In this document: one piece after another, positions 39,874-49,100 of the stretch
How positions within the stretch are numbered: the stretch's first letter is position 1
How the letters are laid out: every line of letters starts with the position of its first letter
DNA from: Podospora anserina
Lineage: Eukaryota
Direction: 5' to 3'
DNA length: 64,000 nt
Assembly (NCBI GenBank): GCA_017654855.1
Contig: CM030332.1
Location: forward strand, 3,658,001 to 3,722,000
Position numbers and translations under genes: made by a program
Notes under the pieces: model-generated
Told to the model about the DNA's origin: nothing
Seen by the model: only the letters and a program-made list of their open reading frames with translations
Database searches by the model: none

Positions 39874-40496
39874 ATCAGTCAGCGGGGGAATGATTGGTAC
39901 ACGGGATAGCATGGGGATGGGGTTTTATAATCATAAGCAACTAAAGCGAAGTATGGATATCGCTGCTTGTTGGTACGCGCCAGCTTTTTTTTTTTTTTTT
40001 TTGGCTGTTATTCTATAGGAACTCTACTCCTTTATCAAGCGTTGATGTTTTGCGTCTTGGGTTGCTGCTGAGGTGTGGTGTTATGTACGGCTCAAACTGC
40101 CAGAGTCATGGTGGTCGGTTCTGTACAGGATGTATGTTGTCAAAGGCCAAGTTATTATCATTCAACAGCACGGTTTTTGAAGTACATATAGGTGTACTAG
40201 ACGAACTTTGTTTTACTATGATCAATCCAAAAGTTCACTGGACTAGATATGCAGGCAGACTTGTAGACACGACGATACATTCTTGCCCGAGTTTTGAGTC
40301 GTAGCTGCCTTTTGCCCTAAGCATTGAGAACTGATGCAATGTGAGCACGCAACCGCGGGGTTGTTTGATTCTTTCCCGTCCGTCACTTACAAAGCCCTCC
40401 TCACTCACCAACCATCTAATATTTTCAGCCCTCAAGTTCCCTAAAACCGTCACTTTATGGAAGTCTAAAACATATTTCAAGTATCTGAATCCTCCA

Positions 40497-41521
40497 ATGG
40501 CAGACCTCCCCGACTTTGACGCCCTCCGGGGCAGGCACCTCGGCCTAATAGGGGTCATCTCCATGGGGGACATGGGAAGCGGGGTCGCACGGTTGCTGAT
40601 GGCGCATAATTATGCTGTGTTGACCAATGTTTCCGACAGGAGGTCTGTTCCTTCCCATTTTACGTGTCCTGTCCATACTGACACCTTCCCAGCGAGGACA
40701 CCAAATCCCGCGCGCTCTCCGCCGGCGCCGTCCTCCTCCCCTCTGACGAGTTACTAGTCGACCACTCGGACCTCATCCTGTCCATTGTCCCCCCTGCCGA
40801 AGCCTACTCGACCGCGGAGAGGGTGGTGAAAGCGTGGGATAGGAAGGAGACGGAGCTGGTTTATGCTGATTTGAATGCTGTCTCCCCTTCTACCCTGCTG
40901 TCCATCTCCTCCCTTTTCACTGGTGTCAAATTCATCGACGGCTCCATCCTCGGCGGCCCCCCCTCTTTTATTGGTGGCAGTTGGACGAAACCGATCATCC
41001 CCACCTCCGGCCCGTTTTCTCTCTCGGATATCTTCCCTGGCCTCGGTGAGGTCCTCGGGGAAAAACACATCTCCCCCGAACTAGGCCAGGCAAGCGGCCT
41101 GAAAATGGTCTTCGCCTCCTTATCAAAAGGTTACGCGGCCGTGGCACTTCAGTCAGTGACCACCGCTCACCAGTTGGGCGTCCTACCCGAACTATTGGAG
41201 TCGGTCAATGAACTCCAGGGTGAGGCAGCGGGGAAGAAACTGGAACAAGCTGTTACTGGGCTGGCTCCCAAGGCGGGCAGGTGGGTTAGGGAGATGGAGG
41301 AGATTGGAAAGACTCATAGGGAGAATGGAAATTGGGAAGAGTGGGAGGGGATTTTCGAGGCTGCGGCGAAGGTATATGAGCTTGTGGCGAAGGGGACGGT
41401 GTTGGGAGGGGAAAGGATTGGGAAGAGGGAAAGGGGGACGACGGTGGAGGGGGTTGCTGAGGCGGTGGGGGAGGGGTTGGGGAGGAGGAAGGAGAAGGAG
41501 GAAGGAGAAAGGGAGGTGTGA
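40497..41521 (+). CDS. NAD-binding 6-phosphogluconate/3-hydroxyacid dehydrogenase-like protein (DUF1932-type C-terminus); intron ~40643-40692
   Basis: Rossmann motif IGVISMGDMGSGVA, DLNAVSP, FIDGSILGGPP, ASGLKMVFASLSKG, KAGRWVREMEEI. Confidence 0.85.
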
Positions 41522-41738
41522 TATGGGCGAATGGACATGATGGGGGTGGTTCGATAGATGGCGGGGAGTTTGTCAAGTGCTCAAAGTTCAATCGACTACA
41601 AAAAACACTGCCTCGCTAATTTGAACTCCAGTTTCACAAACTGGTTTCTCTTCACATCCATGGGCATTGTTGGCAGACTCCATGTCTGTGTGGACTTGGG
41701 CAAAAAGAAAAACAAATGCTGGAAAATCAAACGCTGAT

Positions 41739-41809
41739 TGGCGGGCCAGGAGTCGAACCTGGGTCGTCGCTCAAACTTGGGAATGCAATAACCGCTATAC
41801 TACCACGCC
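41739..41809 (-). tRNA. tRNA-like element or tRNA pseudogene; isotype not assignable
   Basis: GGCGTGGTAGTATAGCGGTT...CCAGGTTCGACTCCTGGCCCGCCA: A box, canonical B box, perfect 5-bp T stem, 6-bp acceptor with bulge, downstream T4/T5 runs. The anticodon stem does not pair. Confidence 0.75.
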
Positions 41810-42017
41810 ACGGAAACTGGCTTTTGATTTCGGAATGCTAAAGGGCTGTCCAGTCTGGCCTGGGTTGTGCTAGGGCCAGAAGGGAAGACGTGGCGTTCCT
41901 GGAGCGGAGTCTCTTGAACTCTATCAAACGACGGACGGCTCTGGCCTGGCGCCACATGACGCGACCTCAAGGTTGAAGATGATATCGGTACAGTGTTGTC
42001 ACATTGCACTGGGCATG

Positions 42018-43736
42018 TTATTCCTCACTCGCGTGAGATACCACATAAGATTGTGGCGCGTCTAGCTTGGTCGTTATGGCGGCGTTCTCTTCCGAAGAGA
42101 TGTAGACACCCTCTGAAGAGACAGCACCAAAGAGGTCGGGGAAAGTCTCCACCTCCTCTGACGTCTTCCCGCCAGATGTTCCAATGGCAAAGGTAGGGCG
42201 GTCAGAAGGCCAGGCCAGCTTTAGCCTTGTCTTTTCTGTTGGGGGGATGGCCTCGGTGAAGAACTGGACGTAGGAGCCCGGCGTGACAATACCGCCGGTG
42301 GCATCCTCGCGCTTGAAAGACCGTATAAAGCTCTCCATGTCTTCGTGCTCTTCTCTTGCGTATCTTGTGTTTGGATCAAGTGACAGGAGGCCTTGCTTGA
42401 GACCCCAGCCGCCGCCGCCGCTGACTATTGACAAGAGTATCAGAGCCGTCAGTCGTGGCAGGAAAAGAGATAAAGACTTACGGATCTTGCGCAACTGGCA
42501 CCCGGCAGCTATTAGCCCGTCCATGGCCTGCGAGGTTTGATGTACCAAGTCCCACTCGCTAGATGGATCATAGTTCTGCACGTCAAGGGGGTTTGGGATG
42601 GGAAACTGATCGACGGCACCCTCGGGCATGATCAAGGCCCAGACGCCTACAGGCCCACTATACGTCAGCTCGTCCGACTCGGAGTGCTCCAGGCGCTTCT
42701 TGAGAAGTGCGGGAATGATCGCCTCAAGTTCCTTGGACGCCGGCTCTGGCTTGACCCCCACCTCGACCTGTCGAAGGATGTTTCCCAGGCCGGCAACAAT
42801 CTTGTGTGGGCGCGTGACTGGTACAAGTGCTGTGTACACGGTACTCGCCGAGGATTGATCGTACCCTGGAAGAAGGATAGTCTGTGTTGTCTTTTCGACA
42901 CTGGCCGCCATGCTCAGGCCTTTTCGGGCCGCAGCGGGATCATGGCGCCATTTGCTCGCAAAAAGAGCGTGGGACTTCCCGGTGGTAAAGATGGTATTGG
43001 CAAGAGGGACCGTGACCTGGAGAGGCTCTGCTTTTGGTTGGAGCCCAGGGAGACGGAGCTCGAGGAAGGACAGTTGCTGTGAAGGTGAGAAGGTCTGGTT
43101 GCTCCCGACTTCCCACAGACCGGGGAGCAACCGGGTAGAACTTCCGCGCAAAACAGACAAACCCTCGGAAGAACTTGGAGCGCCCTGAAACCGTGGAACT
43201 TCATCCACCGCCGCACTCAAGACGCTGAGCTCCCTCCCCGTCTCATCAGAGGTCGTAGCCTCGAGCAGCCCAGCCATAAACGCCTGATCCTCCAGCCAAG
43301 GGGCTAGTGACCTGGACACAAGAACCACAGCAGCGTCATCCGTCGACGAGACGCGCAAGCTCTGAGCAACAGCAGAAATGACTCTTTTCTGGAAAAGAGC
43401 GGTCGTGAGTGGTTAGCCCTGTTGTCCTTGTATCATCGGGCTTGCGTAATCGTAACTACTCACCTTCAACTCGGCTGTTGACATGGAGGAGGACAACTCT
43501 AATGAGCCAAGGCCAACAGTGACACACTTGTGCCTGGCCAGCAGGCTCTGTATCATCCGTCTTTGCTGACCGATATTATGACAGCCATGATGACTCTTGT
43601 GGCTGCTGCTGATGTGACTGTGGCCATGAGTGACAGAAACAACGCGTCGTCCAGGAAAAAACGACGACAGAGCCCTCCCCCCTATTACTCCCCCACCACA
43701 ACCCGCTACCCGTCGGAGAAAATTAGCCGGCAGCAT
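42018..43736 (-). CDS. Hypothetical protein with possible mitochondrial presequence; at least 2 introns (~43389-43463, ~42424-42481)
   Basis: 446-aa ORF with globular-looking motifs (LANTIFTTG, AGLGNILRQV, SGGGGWGLKQGLLSLDP). Upstream ATG exon MLPANFLRRVAG...; GTGAGT and GTAAGT donors with branch/acceptor signals. Confidence 0.7.
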
Positions 43737-44297
43737 TGTCCCTCACCGTACCATCTCTCACGGGCGTGATTCCACAGAATCGAGAGACAGAAAATAGACC
43801 GAAGGTGGTGGTGTGGTTCGATCGAGGTGGTGGTGGTCGTTCAACAAGAGAGCAGCACACAAAATGGTCACCAAAATCCCAGTTGATCATAGCTTCCATG
43901 CAGTACAACCCTAACCCTTTGTCAGCGAAGGGCAGAACCACTTACCACCGCTGCCCAGCCAGTGACATCATCTCTTCTTGACCAGCCAGCAATTGACGAT
44001 CCTGATCATATGCTCTCATGTTTTCCAAACAAAAGAGGCATATCACAATGTAAATTTTGTACTCACCGCGCAATTTAACTCCATGTTTTTGTCCTCACCG
44101 CCTCGAAATCAAGGCTCACTTGTGCCTTTGTGAAAGTGTAACTCAACACCACCATCTTTCACCCAAGAACCCAGCTATATAACCACCTATTCACTTCCCC
44201 CATCACCCACCTCTCCTTCCTCCCAGACATCATCTCATCAACTATCTTACTCAGCCTTGAATCTTTTAGCAACAAACCAACTCAAACAACTTTGAAA

Positions 44298-44570
44298 ATG
44301 GCAACCAACTCCTCCCGCGGCAACCCGATCGGCGCCCGCGACGGCCCCAAGACCTCCACCGGCGCAGAGGTGCCCCCGATCGGGGAGGACACGAAGCAAG
44401 ACCTCGCCGAGACCTCCACCGCCGAGGCCACCGGCGAGCACGTCCCCGGTCAGGATCCCACTGTCGAGGCTGGAACGACAGAAGAGGGGGCTGCTGCTGC
44501 TGCTGTTCCTGCTGAAGCTGCTGCGGAGGAGGGTGAGCAGGAGGAGACGAAGAGCAAGAAGAAGCATTGA
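44298..44570 (+). CDS. Small acidic, probably disordered protein (90 aa)
   Basis: ATG in AAAATGG context, coding-like C/G third positions, CTATATAA about 120 nt upstream, pyrimidine-rich leader. Confidence 0.65.
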   Translation: MATNSSRGNPIGARDGPKTSTGAEVPPIGEDTKQDLAETSTAEATGEHVPGQDPTVEAGTTEEGAAAAAVPAEAAAEEGEQEETKSKKKH

Positions 44571-45034
44571 GTTTTGTGGGAGGGGGCGGCGTTGGCAGGG
44601 GGGTTTGCAGGGGATGTGGAGATAAGGGGTGGTGGGGGATGATGATGATGATAGGGGGGACATTCGTTTAGTTTCTTGCTCCAAGTTTACTTTGCACTTG
44701 ATTTTGGGGAGGGAACTAACTGAATTGGAGTCACTCGTTCTGAAATCACTGTTTTATGATGAGATGTGGTGATGTTTGTTGTGTCGTAATATATTGTGTG
44801 TAAAAGACTTGATGCGGTGAGTGTCTGCTGAAACTTCTGAAAGATGATAATTGCTGATTGGCCGAGTCACGCAACATGCTGGTGTCTTCCACTAAATCTT
44901 ATGAACTCCAGATTTATATTACAATTCTTACTTCACATCCCTTACAATGACCAATAGCACCAGCTCTGTCTGCCACCCATGTCCTACTTACTTGTCAATA
45001 TCAAGAGTCAAACAGCACCTCATATATACCATTG

Positions 45035-45680
45035 AGCTGTAAGGTTGTGAGAAGAAAGCGCGATCATAAAACTGGGGACAGCTGTGATGTTGACGGCTGT
45101 GAAAGATGACTGTGAAAGAGATATACAGCTGTGAAAAATGACAGGTGTGAAAAGTGACCGAGGTGAAGAAATAGCTGTGAAAGTTAAACATGAAATAGAT
45201 TGATGGCTGTGAAAAAGAAGCTGCGAAAAAAGTAACTGTGAAAAAAAGTAGCTGTGAAAATGTGGTCGTGAAAATGGATAGCTGGGAAAATGGATATATG
45301 GGAAAATAGATAGCTGGGAAAAGATGTAAGTGTGAAAAGAGTAGGTGTGAAAAAGTAGCCGTGAGGAGTGGTTGTGAAAGAAACAGGTAGCTGTGAAATG
45401 ATTGCTGTGAAAAAAAACAACCGGGAAAAGTAGCTGTGAAATATAAGGTGTGAAAGAACAATGGCGATGAAGATATACCTGTGAAAAATTAGCCGTGAAA
45501 GAATAGCTGTGAAAAGTCCATGTTAAAATGTAGCTGTGAAAATACGGCTGTGAAATTGTAGGTGAGCAAATAAGTATAAAATAGTCGGATACCTTGCTGT
45601 GAAAGAGGAGTTGCAGAAAGGTAGTTATAATAGAGATAGCTGTGAAAAGAGATTGTGGGAGAGACAAGTAGCTGTCAAAA
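45035..45680 (+). repeat. Degenerate single-orientation array of (TA)GCTGTGAAA motifs with variable A-rich spacers
   Basis: By manual count 23 exact GTGAAA cores plus about 12 near-variants (GCTGGGAAA, GCTGCGAAA, GCTGTCAAA), spaced roughly 13-25 nt; no reverse-orientation copy seen. Confidence 0.9.
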
Positions 45681-46120
45681 CAACCTTTGACAACTACTTA
45701 AGAGTCAATCGTTGCATGTAGCCATGAAGCATTGAAGATATGAAGACACAGATTTTTTGTGAAATAGCAGTCCTCGTAGACAGCATCAAGATCTCCAAAC
45801 AACAGCTTGCCTTCAAATATCTCCTTCACTGGTCACAAGATTGGCTTTCGTCTTTCTCTTGATGTATGGGAGCATACGACTCCAACAAAGCACTCACTCA
45901 CCCAAAACCCACAGAAACAGTCATATCAAGTCCACATTAGTAGTCATTTCATTACCCTCCACCTTCCCTTTCCTATCCTACCTTGTACCCTGTCCTGTTA
46001 ACCAGCAACCCTCCTTCATTAAATAAACACAAAGAAGCCCCCCCTGCTATATGCCCTATCAAACGCATTCCCACATATCTACCCTTCATACCCCAACTGA
46101 TATATATCCCATCCCATCCA

Positions 46121-49100
46121 TCACATTACCACACACTTCTTATCCTTTTCCTTTCCCCCTTGCCCTTGACCCTGCCCCCTCTGCCAAGTAACATTATTCC
46201 CCTCAACATTCGTCCACGCAACCGTACTCATCGCATCCATCTCTTGCTTCTTCTTCCCCCTCCCCCTTCTACTCTTACTCCTAACCGTCATCCCACTCCA
46301 CCCCCTCTTCTTCGCATCAGCAATGTTCTTGGCCGCCGACCTCTCTGCTCTACTCGGCTTCCTATTCAGACTCGGCACCCTCCTCGCAAACCCACTCAAC
46401 CCCCCACCACTCGACGACCCCGGCACAGGGGGCGGATGATTCAAAAACTGATGATGATGTTGCTGCTGCTGCTGTTGCCCGTTATCTGACAAACTGAAAA
46501 TAGTATCCAACCTCTCCGGCACCTGCCGTGGCATAAGTATGGACGACTGCGTGACAGGCCTAGGATGCCTCGGCACCGGCGCCAAAATCGGCGTCTCCGC
46601 CCTTTGTTGAGTTGACGAAAACGACCCAGGCGCATCAAATGCCCCCTGAACCCCCTTTGGCGTCGAAATAATAAGCGGCATGTCCTCCTGAGGCTGCTGC
46701 TGAACCAAAGGCCCCGAGGTAACAATATCCGACGGCCTCCTCGGCTGGGGCTCATGAATCGTAGCGCGGGAGTGACACGATCGATGATACGGCGGTGAAC
46801 CGCCACCGCCTCCTCCCTGCAAGGGGAAAGAATAATGTTGCTGCTGTGATACAGGTCGTTGGTACGAGGTCCTCCTCCACGGCTGCTGAGGTTGCGGCAG
46901 ATGCTCATCCATAGTCATGGCAGGGTGGGCAGAATGTGGGCCTGCCACCGCCACGGGAGCACGCGGTGGCAGCTGAAAGTGGCCAGAGAACCGATGGTTA
47001 CCGTTCCCAAGATTCGAGATCTGATCGGGCCGGGGCAGAGGCGGGAACGACCGAGACATAGTACCGTCGGTCCCGTTGCCAGGAACAGGAGCCGAGTACG
47101 GGTAGCCGTCGGATACCGCAGTCGTGTTAATTGGTACTGGCTGCGTTGGCCAGGTCCTCGAGACGGACAAGCGTCTCACAGCTGGGGGTTCCTCCGACGC
47201 GACTACTGGTCGGTGACTCGGTGGCACCAACGAATTGGTGACCGACGAGGACGACGCCATAGTCGTCTCACTAGCCCCTGGAAGGCCCGTTTCTGGAGAA
47301 ACACGAGCAGCTTGGCCGGCAAAGGGGCTGGGACCGGAACCGGCAAAGTCCCCTTGACTGGCCGTGGGAGGTGACACAAACAACATGCTGGCTCGAACGG
47401 GTGGCGACGGATCGTTCTCTGCCGGGCTGCCACTAGGTTCTCGGGATACATGTTGCCTTACCGGTGCCAGAGCAGGCGAGTCTGGCGGTGAAACATCATA
47501 GATGTTGTCACCATCTAGGAAGCGTGAGCTGCTGGAACCTGGCCGCACAACGGGATTTTGCACCGAAAGCGACCCCGAGCTGCTGTTTCGTTCGTGAGAG
47601 GCCATGATTCGAGGAGGCGGCGGCAGTGGTGAGCCCATAATGCCTGCCGGGAGAGCCGGTACCGGCGGGATTATATCGAGCGATGGAAGTGGTGGGACAG
47701 GGGGAACGGGCGGGTTTGGCGAAGAATGACGATTATTGGTAGTGGTGGTGACAGTCTGGCTGCGACGGGGCTGGAACATAGAGGCTGACGACATGCGTGC
47801 AGCTTGCCTGTCTGCTGTGCCGACCTGTAGCTTGCCGTCATGGGTCTGAACACCGGCACCGGCAGCCAAAACGGCCGTGTGTCGAAGGAAAGCTGGGAGG
47901 TCGCCGGGGTCTTCTTTCTGGTACGGTGGTGGTGGAGGAACCCAGTTGTCCGCATCACTCTCATGGGGATGCTCAGCTCGACCATCAGCTCTGCGATATT
48001 CGACCGGTCCTGCGGCTGCTTGTTGTGGCTGCAACCGGCGGTTGTTGGCAGCGGCGGTAGCCGCACGGCGAAGAGTTGTCCCTGAGCGCGGATCTCCTTG
48101 GGAATAGGGCGCATCGAGTGCCTCTTGTTCTTCGAGCATAGATTCTGTCTCTCCGCCTTCATCGACTGTCGACGGTGGACCATTGCGGCGAGGTGGGACG
48201 GTACCTACTCGACGAGGAACCAAGGGGTCATCCTCATCTTCCTTTTGTGTTGAAGAGGAGGGCTGGGTAGGCAACGGTGGTGGGCGAGGAGCAGCAGTTG
48301 TTGCACTGCGCATGACAGTAGACACAGCCCTGCTGCCCCTTTTCTGAGCGACAGTCCTCCGACGAACGATGGCCACTTCGGTCTCCATATCACGATGCTC
48401 TTCCTCCAGCACTTCGGGCTCCCTCGTTCCTACGTCGATGGTAAACTCCTTGATAACCCCGTTGGTTACGCTGTAGTCGAAGTCGAGAAGAGTGATCCGG
48501 CCGCCATCTACAAAATCGATGCCCTCCTCGTCCGCGACAGAGATATTAGGCGTGACGCCACGGGCAGTGATTACCAACCGCTCTTTTATGCACGAGTCTG
48601 CAAAATCGGCCACGAACTTGACAGTGCTTACACCTTCGAGCTCAGCAATCTTGTATCCTCCCACAAACGTGTTGCGCAGTTTGTCGCATAGAATCTGCCA
48701 TTGGGGCACCCGAGCCTCATTCTCCTGAACTCGTGAAGCTGCCCGCATCGATGGACCGCTATTTCGTCGTAGAAGCCCACCATTGCCCGAGTTGTTCTCC
48801 GCAGCCGCACTGGTGGTATCCGGCACGGCGTCAAGGTCCTCAGGAACACCATACAGCCAGATATCCTTCCCCTGAAAGCCTGCCGAAACCAGCTCTCCAT
48901 AATAAGAGGCAGCCGGGAGTGTACATGGAATGAGCCTGGTCTGCGATTCGGTATTGGGAACTGGCCCTGTGAAATAGGTTGTGCCGTTCCTCAGATCGTC
49001 AATACGCACGGCCCGGAAGGTCTCGAAGCTACGGTCGTAGGTAAAAGTCCATGCTGCTTCCTCGTATTTCCCATTCTGTAACAAGACGGCGTGACTGCAA

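Follow-up and report, generated by a model that had tools for sequence, protein, structure and literature searches.

We describe a two-copy motif array in the genome of Podospora anserina that is real and apparently undescribed. Array A lies in the 64-kb stretch of DNA analyzed here (the window, to which positions refer), and array B lies elsewhere on the same contig (Table 1). We read both as the two members of a very small family of degenerate minisatellites with a 14-bp unit, which would also be homotypic site clusters, live or former, in which one DNA-binding protein would read TGTGAAA. That protein binding shaped array A at all, be it within a mobile element or at a host site, we consider somewhat probable. 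The narrower reading that we prefer is tentative, i.e., a serious possibility rather than a probability: A and B may be protein-binding arrays that grew by tandem duplication and were left by a Mutator/MATE-like element.

Table 1. Features in and around array A (window positions) and location of array B.
Feature	Position	Strand	Remarks
90-aa gene	44298..44570	+	no Pfam match; occurs in sister Podospora species
9-bp direct repeat AAGAGTCAA, left copy	45003..45011	+	candidate target-site duplication
Stop-free frame, 225 codons	45020..45697	-	judged to be a by-product of composition
Array A	45042..45679	+	about 40 degenerate head-to-tail units, consensus TAGCTGTGAAAAAG
Three adjacent 16-bp units with variant TGGGAAAA	45279..45326	+	from sequence and unit table
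Terminal palindrome	45666..45699	.	last forward unit (TGTCAAA variant) plus inverted copy
9-bp direct repeat AAGAGTCAA, right copy	45700..45708	+	begins directly after the palindrome
DUF7165 gene	46121..49972	-	stop-to-stop frame; matches Pa_1_10480 by geometry
Array B	G000:C1 about 3,900,630-3,901,300	same as A	198 kb from array A on one contig

The interval 45035–45680 contains 23 exact GTGAAA, all on the forward strand, 13 of which read GCTGTGAAA, and no reverse-strand TTTCAC; both the count and the single orientation given in the initial annotation were hence reproduced. When one mismatch was allowed, GCTGTGAAA matched 39 times in the window, with 25 matches inside array A, all forward, compared with 16.9 matches expected for the whole window from shuffled sequence. 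With the terminal palindrome counted, the array extends over 45042–45699. Its units are 13–19 bp long, with modal periods of 14 and 16 bp, consist of 69% purine and all contain a self-complementary AGCT. Start-to-start spacing was 13–17 bp in 34 of 39 intervals, TRF reported a period of 16 bp with 10.5 copies, and tiling with a cyclic consensus covered the whole stretch with 40–41 units of 78% mean identity. The long 'spacers' are decayed units, and we therefore regard array A as a degenerate minisatellite that bears traces of growth in tandem. The freely diverged spacers that had been described between the cores thus did not hold up. Three neighbouring units with the variant TGGGAAAA are the trace of one local tandem duplication. 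Neighbouring units were barely more similar to each other than distant ones (0.64 versus 0.61–0.63), which suggests that array A is old. A matrix derived from the units found 32 forward sites per 700 nt in array A, and 14 DNA-like sequencing runs contained 0.98 of the words.

As had been noted, array A lies between convergent 3' ends, i.e., the stop of the forward 90-aa gene at 44570 and that of the minus-strand DUF7165 gene at 46121. By coordinate geometry, the 90-aa gene matches Pa_1_10475. In several sister Podospora species it bears the label 'valine--tRNA ligase', apparently a mis-annotation passed on by transfer. The stop-to-stop gap measures 1551 bp around array A and 1577 bp around array B. 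In published reference coordinates the former is 1563 bp and the latter differs by 1; the difference at array A could be a length polymorphism of (GAT)n or of array units, or an annotation offset. Elsewhere in the window we observed a 75-nt intron of a minus-strand gene (43388–43464, joined in four of four contig sets), an A at position 43130 that is C in four of four contig sets, a xylose-isomerase-like TIM-barrel gene (51865–53493, +), a BUB1/Mad3 kinase gene (53729–57669, −) and a frame with NACHT/NPHP3_N plus DUF7791 (58987–60648, +).

Array B shares word and orientation with array A, has a modal period of 14 and carries TAGCTGTCAA at its end as A does. It also lies between convergent stops, namely of CK2 alpha (+) and an M28 peptidase (−). 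It is more decayed, with 68% mean identity, and opens with six near-identical 14-bp units that represent a recent expansion; four of these fresh units contain GCTGTGAGA, in which one core base is changed. The flanks of both arrays are unrelated and gave no alignment, and the arrays themselves were at most about 70–75% alike in local alignments. When all units were used, A and B appeared collinear, with 1 of 200 and 0–8 of 300 shuffles as good; this collinearity was lost once the fresh block of array B was collapsed (29–62 of 300 shuffles as good). The 11-letter consensus common to A and B points to a common origin or a common reader. A gene with a Het-C domain (L051 910–1581, +) lies near array B, about 7 kb upstream of CK2 alpha.

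We searched the genome, i.e., 36 Mb in 9 contigs, for further clusters. Pattern searches found arrays A and B only and no third cluster, although RIP-mutated copies would escape such patterns. Both clusters are on C1 and none on the other contigs (n = 2); the genome scan proposed in the initial annotation returned two loci on one contig. Across 689 kb of contiguous chromosome, the matrix found 32 sites in A, 19 in B and at most 4 elsewhere. A word-agnostic scan of 689 kb likewise placed A first (22 copies of one hexamer) and B second (10), followed by a next-best of 9. DNA searches with the arrays gave self-matches only. Candidates for a third array at C1 7.197 Mb (L039), C1 1.364 Mb (L005), C5 0.607 Mb (L017) and C7 1.108 Mb (L209) were rejected, with at most 6 matrix hits per 700 nt versus 19–33 for A and B. 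At L209 1480–1535 (C7 about 1,108,310–1,108,360) we observed three TGTCAA-variant units with 15-bp spacing downstream of a forward gene, then CAACCTT, as at the right end of array A; a nearby stretch looked tRNA-like by eye, where ARAGORN found none. At L005 1490–1530 (C1 about 1,363,860), an AT-rich, RIP-looking patch holds three TGTGAAA/TATGAAA units preceded by AGTAG and is possibly what remains of a related repeat.

The terminal palindrome was also considered as a genome-wide dimer site and rejected: it gave 152 strand matches with up to two mismatches versus 35 in the control, but no array at the 22 loci examined (21 besides A), and these palindrome-like loci often lay within long ORFs. 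The pattern TAGYTGTCAAA was not enriched genome-wide (29 versus 48 in the control). A metagenome scan returned at least 121 stretches, and the inspected loci with four or more hits looked like unrelated tandem repeats. Four of the metagenome loci (L072, L135, L070, L139) were unrelated-looking sequence with dense TGTGAAA-containing tandem arrays, and the word may hence be a common minisatellite seed.

To assess retention of the core we used the 36 of 40 array A units with at least 9 of 14 consensus matches. Mismatches fell on 29 of 252 positions in the core TGTGAAA and on 68 of 252 in the other seven columns, i.e., the core took 29 of 97 in total. Neutral growth-and-decay models comprised duplication history, uneven unit ages and A-run indels, and were allowed their best seven columns. 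The core retention of array A was reached in 0, 7, 3 and 3 of 300 runs each (13 of 1200), and none of the 1200 runs contained 23 copies of one hexamer; a simple-decay model gave a similar answer. Within the unit, TAGC carried 38 mismatches versus 17 in TGTG (binomial p 0.006, with units that are not independent). The best-kept columns are the two TpG guanines, and 0 of 600 simulations reached values as low. This is the opposite of what RIP leaves, so RIP does not explain the pattern, and we found no RIP signature in the array. A core-minus-rest measure was as high as observed in 25 of 356 matched simulations, and we therefore call the core signal in array A moderate. Core retention in array B was weak, with p 0.08, or 0.24 once five shared changes were dropped. 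The conserved core described in the initial annotation is thus kept beyond neutral models in A, where a cluster of binding sites is plausible, whereas the effect in B is weak.

These numbers bear on a neutral origin, which we consider somewhat unlikely. A palindrome-seeded 14-bp unit would have expanded by slippage, a single copying event, through ectopic repair or a rearrangement within the chromosome, would have given the second locus, and the repeat would now be decaying; the core would look kept since the junctions of duplications and slippage in A-runs lie outside its seven letters. Duplication junctions placed preferentially outside the core were not part of our models, so this explanation stays alive. 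The clear tandem structure fits it, as do the fresh expansion in B, which even alters a core base in the four GCTGTGAGA units, the weak core retention in B and the matched simulations equalling A on one measure. Moreover, P. anserina is described as evolving mostly by gene shuffling inside chromosomes, as stated in parts of PMC2441463. On the other hand, the core excess of array A survived the other neutral models, and the same 11-letter consensus has been kept at two loci despite 22–32% unit divergence. Such arrays are also no common by-product here, given that A and B ranked first and second in the word-agnostic scan.

The ends of array A carry two further features. The terminal palindrome has 14-bp arms with one mismatch and a 6-nt loop, and no second hairpin in the 64-kb window matched its quality. 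A 9-bp direct repeat, AAGAGTCAA, brackets the array, whereas the initial annotation had seen no target-site duplication. We noticed this repeat post hoc. As an estimate of chance, a 9-mer located at most 5 nt from a fixed place and recurring in a 100-nt stretch 660–760 nt upstream was found for 31 of 5455 window positions. In a whole alignment, the left and right flanks of array A showed no significant similarity (438 of 1000). Candidates for terminal inverted repeats (TIRs) at array A stayed at chance level with none convincing, and the palindrome is present at the right end only. At array B no 9-bp flanking repeat was found, and the terminal stem has only 5 bp. A candidate target-site duplication in the range of 9–10 bp is hence found at A, with the chance estimate given above, and not at B.

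We favour a mobile origin because array A has the 9-bp repeat and the terminal palindrome, because a second copy with unrelated flanks lies nearby and because VANC target arrays (see below) set a precedent; it is weakened by the missing repeat at B, the one-ended palindrome, the lack of a convincing TIR and the non-collinearity of A and B. Further points against the full reading are the weak core retention in B, the matched simulations that equalled A on one measure, the absence of both loci from a catalogue of 1680 repeats, and flanking genes that show neither H3K9me3 nor H3K27me3 peaks (PMC8105982). A perfect 9-bp duplication would fit a young insertion, against which stands the lack of a near-identical donor: genome patterns found neither a parent element nor a near-identical copy sharing the word, although RIP-mutated parents would escape them. 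The earlier suggestion of a transposon relic has thus gained a flanking repeat, a palindrome and a second copy with unrelated flanks, and still stands with neither parent nor convincing TIR. We propose that the array served a non-autonomous Mutator/MATE-like DNA element, which would have had no terminal inverted repeats, as its cis-acting part. Units would have multiplied by slippage or unequal exchange, and core changes would have been purged because a protein had to bind. The element may have hopped locally, leaving the 9-bp duplication at A, and may have persisted at places where two genes converge and an insertion hits no promoter. The binding protein would have been encoded by the element and may be lost.

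A Helitron or Helentron relic was rejected, as the array A hairpin ends in CTACTT and is directly followed by the 9-bp repeat; Helitron termini are described, in parts of PMC3422177, as a 3' hairpin followed by a CTRR end, with no target duplication. The arrays compare more closely with two other systems and with minisatellites in general. In Arabidopsis, the target motifs of VANC accumulate through tandem-repeat formation in VANDAL (Mutator-like) elements, as outlined in sections of PMC5735166. As in A and B, a short motif is tandemly multiplied in non-coding DNA, and there it is read as a site cluster for one protein. In contrast, nothing linked to the arrays here corresponds to a transposon body, a transposase or a VANC-like gene, kingdom and motif differ, and binding at A and B is putative. 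The second system comprises the MATE elements and the AMA1 replicator of Aspergillus nidulans. MATEs are low-copy dispersed repeats of about 6 kb that are near-identical, with RIP-like mutation in some copies. Their short motifs are clustered, each end has a sub-terminal palindrome, and target duplications measure 9–10 bp. Compared with this anatomy, the arrays are likewise a low-copy dispersed fungal repeat, but with 0.7 kb, one palindrome and a different word. With minisatellites (10–60 bp units) they share the head-to-tail units of 13–19 bp, sub-blocks with shared variants and the fresh expansion in B. They differ in having two copies with unlinked flanks and one consensus, a better-kept core (A) and, at A, a terminal inverted unit and the 9-bp flanking repeat.

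Both arrays lie to the left of AT-rich, centromere-like DNA at C1 4.465–4.50 Mb (2 of 20 samples), and we infer that they are on the left arm of P. anserina chromosome 1. SLA2, which we take to be a MAT-flanking gene, is at C1 7.647 Mb, and the arrays are thus on the arm opposite MAT. The his-3 orthologue is at C1 4.017 Mb, about 115 kb away from array B (3.901 Mb), and no array is present within C1 3.947–4.147 Mb. A check against a repeat library had been proposed in the initial annotation: the 1680-row repeat table of PMC8105982 contains neither A nor B, and its chromosome 1 rows skip both places, with coordinates mapped by inference. The literature searched, with most subscription papers and slide-format supplements outside its scope, held no description of either array.

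This setting bears on a live host cis-element of chromosome 1, which we judge unlikely. One host protein would use the arrays as a pair of polar platforms, for loading or as a barrier, and they would serve as a pairing-centre-like or recombination-control site, as a polar fork barrier or as a read-through block between convergent genes. The period of 14–16 bp (about 1.5 helical turns) would set proteins on alternating faces. Such a role would fit two co-oriented arrays on one contig, 198 kb apart and both between convergent 3' ends. It would also fit the absence of a RIP signature and flanking genes that appear euchromatic, since all four lack an H3K9me3 or H3K27me3 peak in the data tables of PMC8105982. 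Moreover, published transcript ends fall inside or beside both arrays (Table S1 of PMC9801653), and meiosis of chromosome 1 is unusual, with an obligate crossover between centromere and MAT and incomplete synapsis on the MAT arm, as far as covered by portions of PMC12005146. However, only two arrays were found, which argues against a general terminator, origin or boundary signal, and they are on the arm opposite MAT. Sites of known fungal factors do not fit either: Ste12 and Ndt80 sites were absent from the arrays, Ace1-type sites occurred 1–2 times and CSL once per array. The T-box-like AGGTGTGA had 3 and 2 hits in the arrays, and a search for T-box genes gave none, with an uninformative control.

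Among known chromosomal sites, the cog hotspot with rec-2 is a cis site for a chromosome region near his-3, and array B shares its contig arm with the his-3 orthologue. Identity with cog was rejected by position, as the Neurospora site lies distal to his-3, about 3 kb from its 3' end, compared with about 115 kb for array B; parts of 10.1101/2023.11.13.566876 describe no repeat array at cog. A further proposal, which we hold to be improbable as a whole, is that A and B still act as loading platforms specific to the mating-type chromosome, with about 40 co-oriented sites under minisatellite turnover. In this proposal, such platforms would be read by one sequence-specific protein, possibly domesticated from a transposon, and would direct how chromosomes pair, where crossovers are placed, or where forks or transcription are arrested in a polar manner in this region. 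Pairing-centre motif clusters of Caenorhabditis elegans and the polar fork barrier RTS1 of Schizosaccharomyces pombe are chromosome-restricted or polar clusters of oriented motifs with one reader protein. Unlike these, the arrays amount to only two clusters, near neither a chromosome end nor MAT, and their reader, barrier activity and meiotic role are putative.

Finally, the arrays could function as RNA, a reading that we consider very improbable. A stage-specific non-coding RNA or extended 3' UTRs would present GUGAAA (+) or UUUCACAG (−), and the repeats would serve an RNA-binding or splicing factor as decoys or as sites for localisation. Two guessed-RNA runs yielded contigs over parts of array A (44950–45163, 45086–45359 and 45544–45960), which gives neither strand nor level, and in two of four guessed-RNA contig sets most of the array was uncovered. 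As far as Table S1 of PMC9801653 shows, one listed transcript of Pa_1_10475, from an unstranded dataset, ends inside array A at about window position 45397 with an 827-nt 3' UTR extension, a Pa_1_10480 transcript ends at about 45769, and six transcript models of the minus-strand gene at array B end within that array.

The forward strand of array A folded into rods in which the palindromic part was paired and GAAA mostly unpaired, with a z of −4.9 compared with dinucleotide shuffles (structured-RNA z-scores: −4.9, −4.0, −2.6). However, folding was no better than in unit-order shuffles (22 of 40 as good) or column shuffles (18 of 40), and selection for RNA structure was not supported, since unit-shuffled arrays fold equally well. 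Among eight tests, the sole exception was the minus strand of array B, and only against column shuffles (1 of 40). A ladder in which six pairs of units had matching deviant units gave a borderline value (56 of 1000), whereas the other three ladder tests (336, 539 and 376 of 1000), a nested test for A (133 of 150) and the tests for array B were not significant, i.e., we found no order-dependent RNA structure in the arrays.

Rfam gave a single match within 40000–52000, a weak tRNA match outside array A. This match (41739–41809, −; 27 bits versus a cut-off of 29) is possibly a tRNA relic. The minus strand of neither array contains a GTRAGT-like 5' splice site, and none of four guessed-RNA contig sets had a joint ending inside array A, which is weak evidence; use of the CAG acceptors was not supported. 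The stop-free minus-strand frame was rejected as a gene: it had no match in Pfam or the protein collection, was equalled in 122 of 1000 unit shuffles and is absent in B.

To our knowledge, filamentous ascomycetes have few sequence-defined chromosomal cis elements. If the arrays are relics, they would show motif arrays expanding by tandem duplication in a fungus, as for the VANC targets, and would add a repeat that is missing from catalogues and evaded RIP. If they are neutral, they warn that a minisatellite seeded by a palindrome can resemble a binding-site cluster as well as a structured RNA. Should the improbable case of loading platforms be true, they would be the first sequence-defined cis element of such kind in a filamentous ascomycete. 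If the core is selected, the arrays would offer, in a genetic model, a small deletable target through which a new DNA-binding protein and its role could be identified.
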